A stretch of DNA of 64,000 bases from the NCBI GenBank assembly GCA_000092065.1, contig CP000591.1; one strand, given 5' to 3'. Origin of the DNA: Ostreococcus lucimarinus. Its lineage: Eukaryota. The position numbers were made by a program, and so were the translations under genes. The notes under the pieces were generated by a model that worked only from the letters and a program-made list of their open reading frames with translations, was not told the DNA's origin and did not search any database. Shown piece after piece: positions 3,911 through 10,900 of this stretch; positions within the stretch are counted from its first letter, which is position 1; each line of letters begins with the position of its first letter.

Positions 3911-4984
3911 TTAATGCGTCGACGTCGTCAAGTATGCGAACAACAGCATGGGCGCGCCGAAGAGGCCGACCATGGTGAGCATCGCCTGCGTGTTCAGCGC
4001 CTTGACTTCTTCTTCGTCGATTTCGCCCGCAAACTTTTCGTTCGCCATCTTGATCAGGTACTCGTCGTACGCGTCTAGTTTTGCGGCGTCCATGTAATCG
4101 AATAAGTCCGATTTCATCTTCTTGGAAGCCGTCGTCATCCCCCAAATCATTCGATCCGCTTGCTTGGACACGTTTCCGTACTGGTTTCCGATGCACCGAC
4201 GATACTGCTTCAACGCCTCATCTCGGCGCTGCAAGTTGTCCAGACAGATGGCGTAGTTGAAGATTATCCTCCCGCCCATCTCCGTCTTTTGCCCGATGCG
4301 ATCGAGCGCCCACGGCTCGAGCAAATCGAGCGCGTCTTGCATGTATCCTCGCTTCATCGCCTCGCCCGAACGCTCCAAAACCTCCCGCACCTCCGCGTAC
4401 TCCGCGTTCGTCAGCGTCATCCCCTGATCCTCGCGATATTTCGCCAATTTCTTCGCCACTCTCGCCCTTCGCGCCGCGATCGCCTCCTCGTCCTCCAACT
4501 CCTCCCGTTTAACGGTTCGTCCGCCGCCGTACGTCTTCGATATATCCGGCGGTCGCTCGAACACCCCCCACGTGCTCACCGACGGTTTATACACCGCGTC
4601 CTCCACGTCGTACCCCACCGCCTTCTCGTCCGCGTCGAACGGGTCGTAATCCCGGTCCCGCGTCAAGATGCGCACCGTCACCTCCCGTTTGCGCGTCGCC
4701 CCCGTCGCGCCGTCGCTCGCCGTCTCGCTCGCGAACGTCCCGTCCGTCGTCGACGCCTCCATCGCGTCGTCCCGATCGCCTCCGTCGCCCTCCGCGCGCG
4801 CGCGCTCCATCGCCGCCGCGTACTCGCGCGCCTTTTTCACGCGATCCTCCACCGACGCGCGCAGATCGATCCTCGCGTCCGCGTCCTCGCGCGGCGCCGC
4901 GCGCGCGCGAGAGCGACGCCGTCGCGCGACGCGCGTCGGCGCCCGCGGCCGCGCGACGCGCGCGACGCGCGCCGCGCGCGCCAT
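3911..4984 (-). CDS. conserved hypothetical protein with C-terminal transmembrane anchor
   Basis: 357-aa ORF with ATG at 4984 (rc CAT 4982-4984). It has an acidic N-terminus, a helical middle region and a hydrophobic C-terminal helix 'MLTMVGLFGAPMLLFAYL'. No family recognised. Confidence 0.5.
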   Translation of the reverse strand: MARAARVARVARPRAPTRVARRRRSRARAAPREDADARIDLRASVEDRVKKAREYAAAMERARAEGDGGDRDDAMEASTTDGTFASETASDGATGATRKREVTVRILTRDRDYDPFDADEKAVGYDVEDAVYKPSVSTWGVFERPPDISKTYGGGRTVKREELEDEEAIAARRARVAKKLAKYREDQGMTLTNAEYAEVREVLERSGEAMKRGYMQDALDLLEPWALDRIGQKTEMGGRIIFNYAICLDNLQRRDEALKQYRRCIGNQYGNVSKQADRMIWGMTTASKKMKSDLFDYMDAAKLDAYDEYLIKMANEKFAGEIDEEEVKALNTQAMLTMVGLFGAPMLLFAYLTTSTH

Positions 4985-5138
4985 CGCGCGCGCCGCTCTC
5001 GCGCGATCGCGCGCGCGCGACCGCGCGACGTTCGCGTCTCGAGGTTCGACGTCGAAACCGACGCGAGGTTCGATCGCGCGCGCTCGAACCTCGCGATCGC
5101 GGGTTCGATCGCGCGCGCGCCGACGTCACTGCGCGTCG

Positions 5139-5432
5139 ATGCCCGCGACCGGGACGGCGTCGTCGCGCGACGAGATCGTGCCCCCGCGACGAGGCGCGCG
5201 AAATCCATGGGTGCTCGTCGGTGCGGGCGCCACGGCGGCGGTGTTGCTCGCGGGATTCGTCGCGTTCAGGGCTGGGGACGCGCGCGCGTCGCAGCGGATG
5301 ATGCGCGCGCGAGTGCTCGCGCAGGGCGCGACGGTGGCGCTGATGGTGGCGACGTCCGCGGGAGGACTGTCGAGCGCGACGTCTTGGACGCTCGCGCGTC
5401 CCGGCGCGGGCGGGACGGCGGGCGAGGGGTGA
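5139..5432 (+). CDS. HIG1 (hypoxia-induced gene 1 / Rcf1-like) domain protein
   Basis: 97-aa ORF, ATG at 5139. It has two hydrophobic helices with HIG1 spacing: 'PWVLVGAGATAAVLLAGFVAFRAG' then 'RMMRARVLAQGATVALMV'. These match the PFVPIG...G and R-x-AAQG motifs of HIGD1A/Rcf1. Confidence 0.55.
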   Translation: MPATGTASSRDEIVPPRRGARNPWVLVGAGATAAVLLAGFVAFRAGDARASQRMMRARVLAQGATVALMVATSAGGLSSATSWTLARPGAGGTAGEG

Positions 5433-6424
5433 CGGACGCGCGGGCGAACGCGCGCGGGTTCGCGGCGAGCGCGACGACGACGCGCGGCGACGACGACGCG
5501 TCGACGTCGCGCGACGGAGGCGCGAGCGATGGTGGGGAGCGCGGGCGCGACGGTGACGCGAGAGACGCGCGCGCGAGGCGGGACGAGGAGTCGCGCGCGG
5601 TGCTGCGCGAACGCGCGCTGCGAGCGGCGTTGAAGCGCGTGCGCGAGCTGGGATGGACGGACGCCGCCGTCGACGCGGGATTGAGGGATTTGAATTTGTC
5701 GCCCGCGATGCGCGCGATCGTTCGCGGCGACGCGGGGGCGGGCGCGAGGGACTCGGGACCGGGCGACGGGCTCGCGGGGGAGTTGGCGGGATACTTTGAG
5801 GAGTGCGCGGACGCGGCGTTTCACGCGAAGGTCGTCGCCGAGGGCGAGACGCTGCGCGCGATGAAGTCGCGCGAGCGCGTGAAGTGGCTGATGCGCGCGC
5901 GTTTGGAGATGATCGAGTCCAAGCTCGATTCGTGGCCGCGCGCGCTCGCCGCGATGGCGACGCCGCGGTACGCGATGACGACGCTTCGGCGTCGCGCCGC
6001 GCTCGCGGATTTCATCGCCGACGCCGCGGACGTCGACGCCTTGGACGTGCTTCCGGATTCGTTGGATACGTTTCGTTGGCACGCCGAACGCGCCGCGATG
6101 CTCGCGCTGTACGCCGCCACCGAGTTACGCTTGTTGACGGATTCGAGCAAGGATCGTCGCAAGACGTGGGCCTTTCTCGACGCCCGCGTCGACGACATCG
6201 CGCGATCCCGCGTCGACGTCCTCGAGCTCAAGTCGTACATCGACGTCTTCGCGCGCGACGCCGACTTGACGACGCTCGGCGCGTCGTTCGCGAGCAAAGA
6301 CGCGCTCGCCGCGGCGTTCGCGCCCGTCGCCGACGTCTTCGCTCGCGCGTCTCGCGCCGTCTTCTCGACCCCTTCGCGCGACGCGTCCGAGCGCGACCCG
6401 CCGCGCGACTCGCCCGATCGATAG
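5207..6424 (+). CDS. COQ9: ubiquinone biosynthesis protein COQ9 (conserved core 5593-6424; 5' end uncertain)
   Basis: 'HWPRAL' appears as 'SWPRALAAMATP'. 'WHAERAAMLALYAATELRLLTDSS' and the preceding HTH region align with COQ9. The only in-frame ATG upstream of the core is 5207. It gives a 130-aa R/G/D-rich N-terminal extension and overlaps the HIG1 ORF in another frame. Confidence 0.6.
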   Translation: MGARRCGRHGGGVARGIRRVQGWGRARVAADDARASARAGRDGGADGGDVRGRTVERDVLDARASRRGRDGGRGVTDARANARGFAASATTTRGDDDASTSRDGGASDGGERGRDGDARDARARRDEESRAVLRERALRAALKRVRELGWTDAAVDAGLRDLNLSPAMRAIVRGDAGAGARDSGPGDGLAGELAGYFEECADAAFHAKVVAEGETLRAMKSRERVKWLMRARLEMIESKLDSWPRALAAMATPRYAMTTLRRRAALADFIADAADVDALDVLPDSLDTFRWHAERAAMLALYAATELRLLTDSSKDRRKTWAFLDARVDDIARSRVDVLELKSYIDVFARDADLTTLGASFASKDALAAAFAPVADVFARASRAVFSTPSRDASERDPPRDSPDR

Positions 6425-6583
6425 TTTACCCGGTAGTCTTAATGCTCACGCGCGCGCCTTTAACCGACTTCGCGCGCGCTCGCCGTCGCGTTTTGTGTCG
6501 CTTCGGTCGCTCCACTCCCGGGTGTTTCACGCCCGAATCGTCGCGCCGCCGCGCGCCGCGCGTCACGCGCGCGCGCTCGAGCG

Positions 6584-9500
6584 ATGTCGTTCGACCTGCG
6601 CTGCGCCGTCCTGTGCTACGCCCTCGCCGGCGTCGCGCACGAGCTCGCGCACGTCCTCGCGCACGCCGCGCTCGCGCTCGCGAAGCGTCGCGGGTCGGTC
6701 GCCGTCTTCGACGCGTGCGCCGCGCTCGACGCGCGCGCGTCGCCGTCGTCGCTCGCGGCGACGCTCGCGCGCGCGCTCGGACGGTGGAGCGCGTTCGCGG
6801 ACGCGCTCGACGACGCGTCGTGCGCGAACGCGCGCGCGATCGTGCGATGGGCGGGCGCGCTGGCGAGCCTGGGCGCGGCGGCGGCGGCGACGACGCGAAC
6901 GCGAGGCGACAAAAGCGGAACGAGCGCGGCGCTGCGAGTCGCGTGCTGGGCGACGGTCCTGGACGCGGTGTGCACGGACGTGCTGGACGCGCTGCCGCGC
7001 GCGCGAGGGACGGTGCTGTGCGGGAACTTTGGGATTATTTTGATAAACGCGGCGTGGTGCGAGAGCGAACGCGGGAAGCGGGCGTTTGATTTGTTGGAGA
7101 AGATGGTGTACGTGACGATGATGCGAGGGGCGCAGAGCGGTGGAGTCGTGACGTTCGACGAGTGCCGTGAGAAGGCGCGAGGGGAGGGTGCGGCTGTGGC
7201 GCTGCGCGGCGCGAGAAGTCGCGTGGTGAACATGAAGCGCACGGATTTGAGCAAGCTCGTGCGAGCAAAGGCGGAACGCGACTGCGGAGGGGCGAAGATG
7301 GGTCGACAAAACGTCACGCGCATGATCGTCGGCCACACGCGGTTCGCGACGACGTCCAAGGCTACGTTTGACGGCACGCATCCGCATCAGTGGTCGCCGC
7401 CGCAGCAGTGTCTCGTGTACGGGCAAAAACAGAAAACGCCCGGGCCGACGCGCGTCGGCGTGGAGAATTACATCACGCACAACGGCGATTTCGACTTTTA
7501 CCAAATCAACAAAAACTGGTACGAGCTCGGTGAGATGCAGCGGTGGTTAGAAATCGCCACGGGACATCCCATGCCGAGCGTGGTGGATTCTGCCGCCATC
7601 GCTGGCGTTATCGATTTACTCAGAGCGCAGGGGAGCTTCGCGCTCGCCGCGAGATTTGCGGTGTGCGTGGGGCTGAACACGAGCGACGCGTCGAAGGACG
7701 CCCCCGTGCCAACGCTCGCGAAATTCGAAGAAATCGCGCGGTATTTTGAAAACGCTTTGGATGCGTCGCTGAGTGCAGGTAAACATACCGTTCGCGAGCT
7801 CGGCTTTCAGGCGAGCACGCGCGAGTTGCTCACGGAAAAGGTCGTATCCGCGCTCGAGGGCGAAGGCAAAGCAGCGATCGAGTGCATCAACTATTACATC
7901 GATGAAGAAATGGGATCGAGTCTACGACACTTTGTGCGATCGACGATCGATGCATTCTTCGACAACGATAGCTTATTCGTGACGAAGACATTTCTCGCCA
8001 ACGCGAAAGGTTCGTTTGGTTTGATGGTGACAAACTCTTTAGATGCGCATCGGCAGCTTTGCGTCGCCGCGCGGGGGCAAACTATAAGCATCGCGTTCTA
8101 CCCGAAGAAGGGTTTGATTTGTTACGGCTCTGAACAAGCCGCCGTTAAAGCGGGTTTGTCGATCCCGACACCAGGTGGTGACGTGTTGGCGAGCGTTCAC
8201 GGCGGTGAATTCGGCGACGACAACGCCGCCGTGCGTCTCGACTTGGACGATTTGAATGGCGAAATTTGTTTGTTAGATTGGGAAGACGGCGACGAACCCG
8301 CGGTGTCGTTCCCGAACTCGCACTTGGAGCAATACCCACTCATGGGTGGCAAAGTTACCGTCGTCCTCGCCGCTGAAGGTACATCTGGCGTGAGCAAGTC
8401 AACCATCGGAACGCCTGCGCAGAGTCTCGTCATGCGCAAGCCGAGCCTACACGTGGGCGTTAGCGTGGACAAGAAGCTGTTTCGCCGAATGACTCGACTC
8501 GAAGGGAACGACCTCATCAAGCCGCTTTTACCCGATCGAGAGGACTTGGTGCTGCACGATATTCACGATATTCCCAAAATTTTGCGAAACATTCAGGAAG
8601 ACTGGCAAAATCGCCCACAGGCCACGATTAGTCTCAATCGACTCACGGCTTGGAACCTTGCGCGTTGTTTGCGGCGACGTCTCGATCGCCGACTCAACAG
8701 TACGACAAAGTCATCGCGTTCAATAGATGTCGTCGTCACCGGTTGTGAAGTGTCGCTTTGGCTAGCCGAACAATTTGCGGCTGATTTACAGCAAGCGTTC
8801 CCCCGGCTGACGGTGAAAGCTGTGAGCTCGAATAAAATACTCGGTTTGTTCGGCCAAGACATTCCCATCCCAACAGTGGGATTCCCAGACTCAAAGAAGA
8901 ACGATGACTTTACGGACTCTGTCGTCATTGTCGTCAGTCACTCTGGCGGGACGTTTGCGCCACTCGCGACTTCGAATCTCCTCGTGAGCTCCACGAGCTC
9001 CATCTTCGTCGTCGCCAGCGAATGGGACACACAAATCGGCAAACAACTCAGAGCGATCAAGTCTGATGGGGCCTTCTGCAGCCGTATCTTTAGCACAGAT
9101 GTTGGCGTCCGACCAGCTGAGCCGTGTTCGGTGAGCGTTGCGGCGACGCAGCAACTTTTGACGCAAATTTTCATGCACATGTCACTCGTGATTCTCGGTA
9201 ACGCCGATTACCGCAAGTACGCGGGCGCCGTGGTTACGAAGCACGACTTGGCGGAACTCGAAAGGTGCAATCAAATGAACATCACCGCGCTGGAAGAAAT
9301 AGTGGGAGTGAAAGCGACGGGCGAAAAGGTCGACTCGTCGACGGAGCGTAGTCTTCGAGCGCAAGGCGACGAGTGGTCCGATCACGTTCTCGAAGGCGTC
9401 AAGGGGTGGATGATGTCGTTTGCATACATCGTCGGCACCGTAACGGCGGGATACCCGCTCATCACCGGCGTTGCCGCCGCTTGTGGACTCGCGGCGACTT

Positions 9501-10900
9501 GGGCGTTTTACCTCACACGATTCTTCGACGCGTTGATTTACGTGTTTCTTCCTCAAATCAACATAACCATTATTCGTTTGGTGCAAGGACGAAACTTGCG
9601 TCATCGCATGACGGGTCGAACGGTTGTCATCGGCGACGTTCCGTGGGTCGCACAGGCTGCAGATGCGTTTCTGTCAAAGATTTTTGCATGCTCGTACTCT
9701 GCCGCTGGGTTGAACGTTCTCAGTGGTAATCCAAACGATCATCTCGTGCACCGACACACGCACCGCGTCGTTCGCGGCGCATTGCTCGTGGTCGGTCGTC
9801 CCGACGGTAGGCTCGCCGCGCTAACGTCCGCTGAGGCGACGACATCGCTCTCGCTCGCCCAAGCAAGTTCTATCCAAAGTTACGGCGGAACGTGCGAATC
9901 GATCACGATCGGGCACTCACCGTATAAGCTTCCACTATCAAAGAATGGTATCTTCCTCAAACGACACCGCCCGATGTACTTGTGCGAGAAGCTCGTGCTC
10001 GAGCGCGAGGGGGAAAAGAGTTTAGACGGTCGCTCGCCCGGCTCCTTGCTCGGCGTGTACAACAAGTATCACGAGGAAGGGGCGGAACTCTCTGTACATT
10101 CGCTTTCGCGTCGAAACGCGGTGCAAGTTCTCACAGCTTCGAGGATTAAGGCGGATAGACAGAAGGGTAATTTGCGCTCGGTGTTCGACGAAATCGACGT
10201 CAACCGCGACGGCAAACTATGCCTCGCTGAGTTCACGCAAGCGTACAAGAAAGTGGACGAATCGCTCACAGACGCACAAATAGCGAAGCTTTTCCGCGAT
10301 GCAGACGTTGACAACAGCGGTACATTGGACTACGATGAGTTTTGCGAAGTCATGAACCTTCCCGAAATGGACATGTTGAACATTCTCGAGGCAGATGCTC
10401 GAAACGAGGAAGGTTTGCTCATGGTGGAGCCGTCGCACGAAGATTATTTCGGGCAATCCATTCGACGAAGCGCACCGAAAAAGATCAAGGCGTACACTCT
10501 GGTGGAGTCTCAAGAGTTCAGCATGAGCTTGTACGAATCACGAATCGCGTCTTTGCAGCGCTTCGTCTCCATGACGGTGATGTTTCACCAAATGGGTGAC
10601 CGGGCTCAAAAGTTTTGGCGAAACGTCTCTTTCGGATATCTGGGATATCGCATGGATCGCACGCACAGTATCATGCGTATCGCCACCACGGCCTCACCCG
10701 TGAGCGGCGCTGAAGTGCGCGACCGGCGTCATTTTATCGCCCTCGTCACCGCGTTCAACAACGCGCTCGGCGTCATCGACAACTCCGGCCACATTCTTCT
10801 CTCTCGAAGACGCACGGAAAGCTACCGCCTCACATCGCGGCAAAAGTCCGCCGCGAGGCTTTCGCGTCAGAGCTCCGTCGCTAGCGCCACTGGCGCGTGA
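6584..10900 (+). CDS. GFAT-like protein: class-II glutamine amidotransferase domain + two SIS domains + transmembrane segments + C-terminal EF-hand pair
   Basis: Single 1438-aa ORF. 'CGNFGIIL...GHTRFATTS...ITHNGDFDFY' matches the GFAT N-terminal Ntn-amidotransferase (MCGIFAY / HTRWATHG / HNGIITNY). 'VIVVSHSGGTFAPL' matches the SIS motif S-x-SGET. A second SIS-like block follows hydrophobic helices. DxDxDG EF-hands: 'DVNRDGKLCLAEF' and 'DVDNSGTLDYDEF'. Confidence 0.8.
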   Translation: MSFDLRCAVLCYALAGVAHELAHVLAHAALALAKRRGSVAVFDACAALDARASPSSLAATLARALGRWSAFADALDDASCANARAIVRWAGALASLGAAAAATTRTRGDKSGTSAALRVACWATVLDAVCTDVLDALPRARGTVLCGNFGIILINAAWCESERGKRAFDLLEKMVYVTMMRGAQSGGVVTFDECREKARGEGAAVALRGARSRVVNMKRTDLSKLVRAKAERDCGGAKMGRQNVTRMIVGHTRFATTSKATFDGTHPHQWSPPQQCLVYGQKQKTPGPTRVGVENYITHNGDFDFYQINKNWYELGEMQRWLEIATGHPMPSVVDSAAIAGVIDLLRAQGSFALAARFAVCVGLNTSDASKDAPVPTLAKFEEIARYFENALDASLSAGKHTVRELGFQASTRELLTEKVVSALEGEGKAAIECINYYIDEEMGSSLRHFVRSTIDAFFDNDSLFVTKTFLANAKGSFGLMVTNSLDAHRQLCVAARGQTISIAFYPKKGLICYGSEQAAVKAGLSIPTPGGDVLASVHGGEFGDDNAAVRLDLDDLNGEICLLDWEDGDEPAVSFPNSHLEQYPLMGGKVTVVLAAEGTSGVSKSTIGTPAQSLVMRKPSLHVGVSVDKKLFRRMTRLEGNDLIKPLLPDREDLVLHDIHDIPKILRNIQEDWQNRPQATISLNRLTAWNLARCLRRRLDRRLNSTTKSSRSIDVVVTGCEVSLWLAEQFAADLQQAFPRLTVKAVSSNKILGLFGQDIPIPTVGFPDSKKNDDFTDSVVIVVSHSGGTFAPLATSNLLVSSTSSIFVVASEWDTQIGKQLRAIKSDGAFCSRIFSTDVGVRPAEPCSVSVAATQQLLTQIFMHMSLVILGNADYRKYAGAVVTKHDLAELERCNQMNITALEEIVGVKATGEKVDSSTERSLRAQGDEWSDHVLEGVKGWMMSFAYIVGTVTAGYPLITGVAAACGLAATWAFYLTRFFDALIYVFLPQINITIIRLVQGRNLRHRMTGRTVVIGDVPWVAQAADAFLSKIFACSYSAAGLNVLSGNPNDHLVHRHTHRVVRGALLVVGRPDGRLAALTSAEATTSLSLAQASSIQSYGGTCESITIGHSPYKLPLSKNGIFLKRHRPMYLCEKLVLEREGEKSLDGRSPGSLLGVYNKYHEEGAELSVHSLSRRNAVQVLTASRIKADRQKGNLRSVFDEIDVNRDGKLCLAEFTQAYKKVDESLTDAQIAKLFRDADVDNSGTLDYDEFCEVMNLPEMDMLNILEADARNEEGLLMVEPSHEDYFGQSIRRSAPKKIKAYTLVESQEFSMSLYESRIASLQRFVSMTVMFHQMGDRAQKFWRNVSFGYLGYRMDRTHSIMRIATTASPVSGAEVRDRRHFIALVTAFNNALGVIDNSGHILLSRRRTESYRLTSRQKSAARLSRQSSVASATGA

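Follow-up and report, generated by a model that had tools for sequence, protein, structure and literature searches.

Eukaryotic mRNAs that encode two proteins in different frames, through leaky scanning or non-AUG starts, include MOCS2A/B and POLG/POLGARF, and coupled termination-reinitiation at AUGA or UAAUG is used by caliciviruses, influenza B and some cellular mRNAs. In green algae, bicistronic mRNAs translated by leaky scanning combine a small first open reading frame (ORF; median 291-357 nt) in a weak start context with AUG depletion and short 5' untranslated regions (Duenas et al., 2025; PMC11892635), and frequently the proteins so paired are small mitochondrial ones (Gallaher et al., 2021; PMC7896298). 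Here we analyse a locus of the picoalga Ostreococcus lucimarinus at which a gene for a HIG1-domain protein is followed on the same strand by COQ9. The DNA examined, hereafter the window, comprises 64,000 nt of contig CP000591.1 (assembly GCA_000092065.1), and all coordinates are those of the window unless another lineage is named. We propose that COQ9 starts at an ATG at position 5207, inside the HIG1 ORF, that the leader of COQ9 is overprinted on the -1 frame of HIG1, and that both proteins are made from one short-leader mRNA by leaky scanning. Judged from sequence comparison, this chain of claims taken whole stands a little on the probable side of even; of its parts, we trust the start at 5207 more and the mechanism less. 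Neither HIG1 nor COQ9 is mentioned in the main text of the two reports cited above or in the supplements of the later one (PMC11892635), and in the searchable literature we found no paper joining Ostreococcus and COQ9 and no description of a HIG1-COQ9 bicistron or overlap.

The HIG1 ORF occupies positions 5139-5432 of the plus strand (ATG 5139, TGA 5430-5432; 294 nt, 97 aa) and encodes a protein of the Rcf1/HIGD2A type. Residues 22-71 match Pfam HIG_1_N over profile positions 2-51 of 52 (E=1.2e-18; 67.5 bits against a cutoff of 22.4), and the best match to a solved structure is human HIGD2A (9i6f_N, E=1.4e-8). The segment ASQRMMRARVLAQG, lying between the hydrophobic segments WVLVGAGATAAVLLAGFVAF and GATVALMVATSAGG, contains the motif Q52-x3-R56-x-R58-x3-Q62, and we take Q-x3-R-x-R-x3-Q to be the signature of type-2 Rcf1/HIGD2A proteins and not of HIGD1A. 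An earlier note on this DNA had described the spacing of the ORF as nearly that of HIGD1A. Its identification of a HIG1 protein was right, while the G-x7-G and R-x3-AQG spacings that it gave are each one residue off, and the comparison should be made with the HIGD2A/Rcf1 type, HIGD2A being the best match in PDB. The same note had reckoned with the case that the ORF is spurious and unconserved, which is contradicted by the 23 homologues that we found and by the way in which they differ. In the 53-codon core, the minimum numbers of substitutions at codon positions 1, 2 and 3 are 33, 25 and 50, and amino-acid identity averages 78% among clades when the HIG1 frame is read, versus 52% for the -1 frame. 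Since substitutions are concentrated at the third codon position and identity is higher in the HIG1 frame, we conclude that HIG1 is selected as a protein. It is also conserved in an outgroup (L016, introduced below) in which there is no overlap with COQ9. No member of the HIG1 clusters carries a RefSeq or GenBank accession, and HIG1 appears to be unannotated in the reference genomes. One homologue, P0143 (L017-L019, GC-rich), has as its next downstream gene call an unidentified ORF on the opposite strand, and adjacency of HIG1 and COQ9 therefore seems not to be universal.

The COQ9 frame, which is the -1 frame with respect to HIG1, is open from 4106 to its stop at 6422-6424. Between 4106 and the conserved COQ9 domain, a scan of this frame returned ATGs at 5207 and 5708 only, the latter already inside the domain. 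Position 5207 is thus the sole in-frame ATG 5' of the conserved domain, as the earlier note had stated, and it is the second ATG counting that of HIG1 itself, with none in between. It arises from the Pro-Trp codons (CCA TGG) of a conserved NPW in HIG1, by the A of CCA joined to the TG of the Trp codon. A start at this codon (aaatccATGgg) would give a full COQ9 ORF of 405 aa (5207-6424, plus strand), and a dual-coding overlap at 5207-5432 in which the transmembrane hairpin of HIG1 is read in frame 0 and an Arg/Gly-rich COQ9 leader in frame -1. The deduction of the earlier note, that COQ9 either overlaps HIG1 from 5207 or needs a non-canonical arrangement, is borne out by the comparative evidence given below; its figure of 225 nt for the overlap becomes 226 nt with the stop included. 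The COQ9 ORF, like that of HIG1, is genuine. Pfam COQ9 (PF08511, the C-terminal lipid-binding domain) matches residues 257-333 (E=1.4e-13; 50.7 bits against a cutoff of 20.5), and a single phmmer alignment joins residues 124-335 (nt 5576-6211, plus strand) to residues 7-201 of human COQ9 (4RHP; E=3.7e-15), so that the TetR-like helix-turn-helix region of the N-terminal part is continuous with the C-terminal lipid-binding domain; taken alone, Pfam COQ9_N over residues 133-158 is below threshold (14.5 versus 27 bits).

Existing annotation of COQ9 reflects the difficulty of placing its start. Translation from 5708 is identical to P0017, which is XP_001420281.1, the RefSeq coding sequence (CDS) of O. 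lucimarinus CCE9901 (5708-6424, plus strand; 238 aa, 'predicted protein'). This model is N-terminally truncated, because ATG 5708 falls 44 residues inside the region aligned to 4RHP. For O. tauri, XP_022839915.1 is labelled 'COQ9, partial', and OUS43615.1 begins at the homologous ATG within HIG1. Annotators thus met the same problem and resolved it in three inconsistent ways. Among the other COQ9 homologues recovered is P0004, of 258 aa, from a Logan contig of 7061 nt, with 69% identity to the window protein. Its differences are almost all of the C-to-T type (A to V, R to C, S/P to L/F), and on this pattern P0004 looks like the product of an assembly of bisulfite-treated reads from the same species.

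The earlier note, which was right to place the organism in the Mamiellales, had suggested a comparison of orthologous loci in that order, and this comparison supports a start at 5207. We compared the window with eight more Ostreococcus lineages (L003, L005, L009, L012, L013, L015, L036 and L037), nine lineages in five clades, in which L015 is O. tauri-like and L036 and L037 are close kin of L005; the more distant, GC-rich outgroup L016 was labelled Micromonas-like from its composition and similarity. Assembly error is ruled out for 5116-5590, where ten independent metagenome contigs of the same species differ by just two single-nucleotide polymorphisms and leave the ATGs and the stop untouched, and the 30-nt HIG1-COQ9 junction is present exactly in six further metagenome contigs. 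All nine Ostreococcus lineages have HIG1 followed by COQ9 on the same strand, with COQ9 in the -1 frame of HIG1, and this frame relation is kept although the length of the HIG1 C-terminal tail and the distance from the HIG1 stop to the motif RGFAAS (5453-5470, plus strand, COQ9 frame) vary widely. RGF[AS][AS] occurs in 7/9 lineages; L015 has AGFAAS, and L013 lacks such a motif. R-x-F followed by A or S is the R-3 type of mitochondrial presequence processing site, and RGF|AAS is a probable cleavage site of the COQ9 presequence.

The outgroup L016 has the same upstream neighbours, but there 97 nt, containing stops in every frame, separate HIG1 from a COQ9 that has an ATG of its own; by comparison of these loci, the L016 layout is the presumed ancestral, non-overlapping state. 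Every COQ9 relative recovered from outside Ostreococcus is Met-initiated and has a basic leader that ends in a conserved RGF[AS]A, of 78-87 aa and net charge +7 to +12 in the Micromonas-like group and of 27-69 aa in more distant green algae. Read from 5207, the COQ9 leader of the window runs for 85 aa to RGF, with a net charge of +11 and its first acidic residue at position 31, and leaders read from the start inside HIG1 measure 76-101 aa (net +6 to +11) across the lineages measured. Leaders read from a GTG at the HIG1-COQ9 junction are 11-32 aa across lineages. A start at 5207 is favoured because its long leader matches those of the relatives and the short junction leader does not.

The start codons themselves carry signals of the kind expected for leaky scanning. 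Reading on from the HIG1 ATG in any frame, one next meets an ATG at ccATGg, in the COQ9 frame, in the window, L003, L009, L013 and L015. In L012 the Pro codon concerned is CCC, and the COQ9-frame ATG of this lineage lies instead 10 codons upstream, formed from ATA-TGC, so that the next ATG after that of HIG1 is in the COQ9 frame in six lineages, representing four of the five clades. The codons concerned are rare in the neighbouring genes that served as the codon-usage reference, where CCA accounts for 12-17% of proline codons and ATA for 8-15% of isoleucine codons (L012, with a single ORF sampled, was excluded); that rare codons should repeatedly create a COQ9-frame ATG by chance appears unlikely, at roughly 0.001-0.02 according to the number of lineages counted as independent. 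The HIG1 ATG is preceded by T or C at -3, within differing flanks, in each of the six lineages that have a COQ9-frame ATG, whereas the one clade without such an ATG has A. The context in the window (gcgTcgATGc) is weak, purines standing at -3 in 16 of the 20 window genes used as reference. No ATG intervenes between the HIG1 ATG and the COQ9-frame ATG in the six lineages (56-83 nt), which is weak evidence alone, with about 0.4 expected per interval on a rough estimate. Rare A-ending codons (GGA, CGA and CCA) are retained in the overlap.

Upstream of HIG1 lies a predicted, probable promoter element, GACGTC(A/G) (5122-5127, plus strand), in the short region common to HIG1 and the divergent upstream gene. 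Its CRE-like (cAMP response element-like) palindromic core is found 17-57 nt 5' of the HIG1 ATG in all seven loci scanned (window, L003, L005, L009, L012, L013 and L016), the chance of at least one occurrence in 60 nt being 0.07-0.19 by background. The distance in the window is only 17 nt, which would imply that the HIG1 mRNA has a very short 5' leader. The longer sequence TGACGTCA was rejected as a general motif of the window: it occurs once, no more than expected by chance, and conservation at this promoter is limited to the shorter GACGTC core.

At the transcript level, the MMETSP TransDecoder ORF P0079 (412 aa, 'complete', from the L012 lineage) starts at the ATG inside HIG1 of that lineage. 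Its alignment to the genomic ORF is colinear from the overlap across the junction and through COQ9, with 96% identity and a sole gap in a Ser/Ala repeat. This speaks against both an intron and a spliced fusion, and in favour of an mRNA spanning the two genes. Look-ups of exact proteins for further transcripts returned long genomic contigs only, and no poly(A) was seen at the contig ends of L012 and L036.

Several observations weigh against the proposal that COQ9 starts at 5207 and is reached by leaky scanning. P0079 comes from a short-read assembly, and neighbouring transcripts can fuse in compact genomes; moreover, the metagenome scan with the 30-nt junction, in which transcript contigs were sought, returned its six contigs as genomic only. 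The ATG at 5207 has G at +4 but T at -3. The lineages share ancestry, and binomial arguments of the kind made above for rare codons overstate their independence. Across five lineages, 10/24 conserved four-fold sites of HIG1 are invariant versus 14% in flanking genes (family-matched permutation P ~0.001), yet significance is lost when the comparison is made with the COQ9 core (31%), which is just as GC-rich, and we regard synonymous-site conservation in HIG1 as suggestive only of dual coding. The open -1 frame was rejected as evidence of translation, as it is equally stop-free through HIG1 in the outgroup, in which COQ9 has its own start. Finally, the clade of L005, L036 and L037 has no COQ9-frame ATG between the upstream in-frame stop and RGFAAS (L005 3146-3530; L036 and L037 2190-2600), the site reading ccCTGg, and its HIG1 ATG stands in a strong context.

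An AUG at this site is therefore not universal, and on this evidence the L005/L036/L037 clade must use a non-AUG start for COQ9, the candidates being the CUG at the same codon or a GUG overlapping the UGA of HIG1. The segment between the HIG1 stop and RGF is longer in this clade, Arg-rich, 30-32 aa in length and of net charge +3 to +6. An upstream ATG at L005:3001, which would open a 467-aa ORF with a leader-like N-terminus, was rejected as a COQ9 start: it is unconserved, the frame being closed in L036 and L037 by a stop 8-9 codons ahead of the HIG1 ATG. These last two lineages also carry an upstream ORF of 10-11 codons (L036 2194-2229; L037 2197-2229), the TGA of which overlaps the HIG1 ATG (aaaATGAcg). 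The ATG of this short ORF opens a 421-aa ORF in a sister lineage (protein P0120), where its frame is that of COQ9.

This clade gives room to an alternative in which COQ9 is initiated at or near the HIG1 stop, by reinitiation or by non-AUG initiation at the GUG of the junction, at the AUG of L009 or at a later near-cognate codon, the -1 frame through HIG1 remaining untranslated. Its strong HIG1 context and Arg-rich post-stop segment would suit such a start, and candidate codons are widespread. The junction of the window is GTGA (5429-5432, plus strand), with a COQ9-frame GTG overlapping the HIG1 TGA; GTGA is shared by L003, L005, L036, L037, L013 and L015 (seven lineages with the window), L009 has a true ATGA and L012 has GTAG, so that a purine-TGA overlap is present in 8/9 lineages and 4/5 clades where the background is ~0.27 per gene. 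This enrichment did not prove robust, being nominal only, and codon usage alone favours NTG-A whenever the -1 frame is coding. Furthermore, the leader that would result in the window is just 11 aa (VTDARANARGF), with Asp at position 3 and a net charge of +1, and those of L003 and L009 are 14-16 aa, compared with 27-87 aa in relatives outside Ostreococcus; L012 with its GTAG does not fit; and neither the retained rare CCA and ATA codons nor the weak HIG1 contexts are accounted for. Reinitiation after a 97-codon ORF and initiation at GUG are both inefficient in eukaryotes, which also counts against this explanation. We consider it unlikely as the general one, while termination-reinitiation or GUG initiation is a live rival at least for L005, L036 and L037. 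Slightly less likely again, in our judgement, is a pair of overlapping transcripts, a HIG1 mRNA beginning 5' of 5139 and a COQ9 mRNA beginning between 5139 and 5207, in which 5207 is the first AUG and leaky scanning is not needed. The evidence for ATG 5207 as the COQ9 start fits this arrangement equally, and as the GACGTC box is so close to the HIG1 ATG (17 nt), transcripts might conceivably begin at scattered points to both sides of 5139. What it leaves unexplained is that the HIG1 context is weak in exactly the six lineages with a COQ9-frame ATG and strong where that ATG is absent, and a HIG1 mRNA that is not itself bicistronic would need a 3' end within COQ9.

The remaining explanations are much less probable. 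A short intron or a spliced HIG1-COQ9 fusion, removing the HIG1 stop or supplying a start from an upstream exon, is improbable. The junction sequences GTGAGT or GTGAGC in the L005 clade and GTGAGG in L003, L013 and L015 do resemble a 5' splice site, but the signal is not conserved (GTGACG in the window, ATGAGC in L009, GTAGCG in L012); the sole frame-restoring AG acceptor in L036 and L037 would define a G-rich intron of 38 nt, and by hand count L005 has none; the sequence right after the junction is conserved as COQ9-frame coding sequence (RGFAAS); and P0079 follows the genome across the overlap and junction. Of the three arrangements that the earlier note had offered as alternatives, the 5' intron and the spliced fusion are accordingly disfavoured, and HIG1 as an upstream ORF of a bicistronic mRNA is best supported, in an overlapping form. 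More doubtful still is a programmed -1 frameshift from HIG1 into the COQ9 frame, giving a polyprotein cleaved later at RGF|AAS. It would agree with the -1 relation found in every lineage and with the G-runs before the stop in L013; however, no in-frame X_XXY_YYZ heptamer was found in the HIG1 ORF of the window, L012, L015, L036 or L037, and RNA of the overlap folds no better than shuffled sequence (z -0.14 to +0.85). RNA structure downstream of the AUG or the CUG was likewise no stronger than in shuffled sequence. We give as little credence to the idea that the HIG1 ORF is an artefact or a decayed gene, the region serving COQ9 alone as its 5' coding part: the lack of database accessions among the cluster members would fit, whereas the strong Pfam match, the higher identity in the HIG1 frame, the third-position substitutions and the conservation in the non-overlapping outgroup speak against it.

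On the reading that we favour, with COQ9 starting at 5207, a single mRNA with a very short 5' leader would carry HIG1 and COQ9. Some ribosomes would initiate at the weak-context AUG of HIG1, and others would scan past it to the COQ9 AUG, 68 nt downstream. The latter would read a basic leader of ~85 residues in the -1 frame over the codons of the HIG1 transmembrane hairpin, and after import this leader would presumably be cut off at RGF|AAS. The arrangement probably originated in the Ostreococcus lineage, from a tandem of HIG1, spacer and COQ9 that lost the spacer together with the original COQ9 start and leader. More tentatively, and with a confidence that falls somewhat short of even, we suggest that genome compaction in the Ostreococcus ancestor deleted these elements, that a mitochondrial leader of ~80 residues arose by overprinting, that leaky scanning on one mRNA yields HIG1 and COQ9, both inner-membrane-associated, at a fixed ratio, and that one clade has since lost the AUG and relies on the CUG or on termination-reinitiation at GUGA. 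An overprinted leader would be possible because the -1 reading of GC-rich helix codons in HIG1 is inherently rich in Arg, Gly and Ala. If this is true, closely related picoalgae use two different non-canonical solutions at one locus. With clades that differ in having the AUG, a relocated AUG or none, the locus could be used to test leaky scanning versus reinitiation.

The surroundings of the two genes are conserved as well. Wherever the contigs reach, the order is an ATP-binding cassette (ABC) transporter, a minus-strand gene of unknown function, HIG1, COQ9 and a large EF-hand protein. The minus-strand gene is the divergent neighbour (3911-4984; 357 aa, no Pfam match), which shares an intergenic promoter region of 155 nt with HIG1 and is syntenic in every Ostreococcus locus that reaches the upstream flank and in L016. 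The downstream gene (6584-10900, plus strand; 1438 aa), of which Pfam matches only two C-terminal EF-hands, is syntenic where the Ostreococcus loci reach it. GC content rises to 75-81% at 4700-5700 and 6500-6900, in gene 5' ends and intergenic DNA with long (CG)n-like runs, compared with 61% for the whole window.

These results also bear on annotation. They correct the reference annotation on three points: COQ9 of O. lucimarinus is truncated, the models of O. tauri conflict, and HIG1 seems to be left out. In general, gene finders that forbid overlapping CDSs will misannotate compact eukaryotic genomes. Should the proposed arrangement be confirmed, it would be a clear nuclear case of a targeting leader made by overprinting, with the non-overlapping ancestral layout kept in a sister genus, and it would add long out-of-frame overlaps to the side-by-side ORFs so far described for bicistronic expression in green algae.

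The HIG1-COQ9 locus would work like the known green-algal bicistrons, yet it departs from their separate-ORF layout. As in those described previously (Gallaher et al., 2021, PMC7896298; Duenas et al., 2025, PMC11892635), the first ORF is short (294 nt), lies on the same strand as the second, has a weak start with no intervening AUGs and probably follows a short leader. The pairing is also similar, joining a small mitochondrial membrane protein to an assembly or biosynthesis factor (compare the TOM22-like/SDHAF3-like and LYR pairs), and the gene order is conserved across genera. A COQ6-like ubiquinone hydroxylase, encoded by another gene of the ubiquinone pathway, is listed among the bicistronic genes of Auxenochlorella protothecoides (PMC11892635, supplementary file 6). 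In contrast to the known bicistrons, in which separate ORFs have a median spacing of 40-183 nt, the proposed COQ9 start lies 68 nt after that of HIG1, with an overlap of 226 nt; the two ORFs are not separate in Ostreococcus, and the form with a spacer (97 nt) is seen only in the outgroup L016. The HIG1-COQ9 locus is known from genomic comparison and the MMETSP ORF P0079. Compared with systems of termination-reinitiation, the junction has a purine-UGA overlap of stop and start in most lineages and AUGA in L009; unlike in those systems, the start would be GUG in all lineages but L009, and the COQ9 leader would be far shorter than those of its relatives. Similarly, the locus resembles MOCS2A/B and POLG/POLGARF in having two long ORFs in different frames on one stretch of mRNA, the second start being reached by bypassing the first. 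It differs from them in that the overlapping part of COQ9 would be only a cleavable leader, laid over the transmembrane-helix codons of HIG1, and in that the non-overlapping ancestral state is still to be seen in a sister genus.

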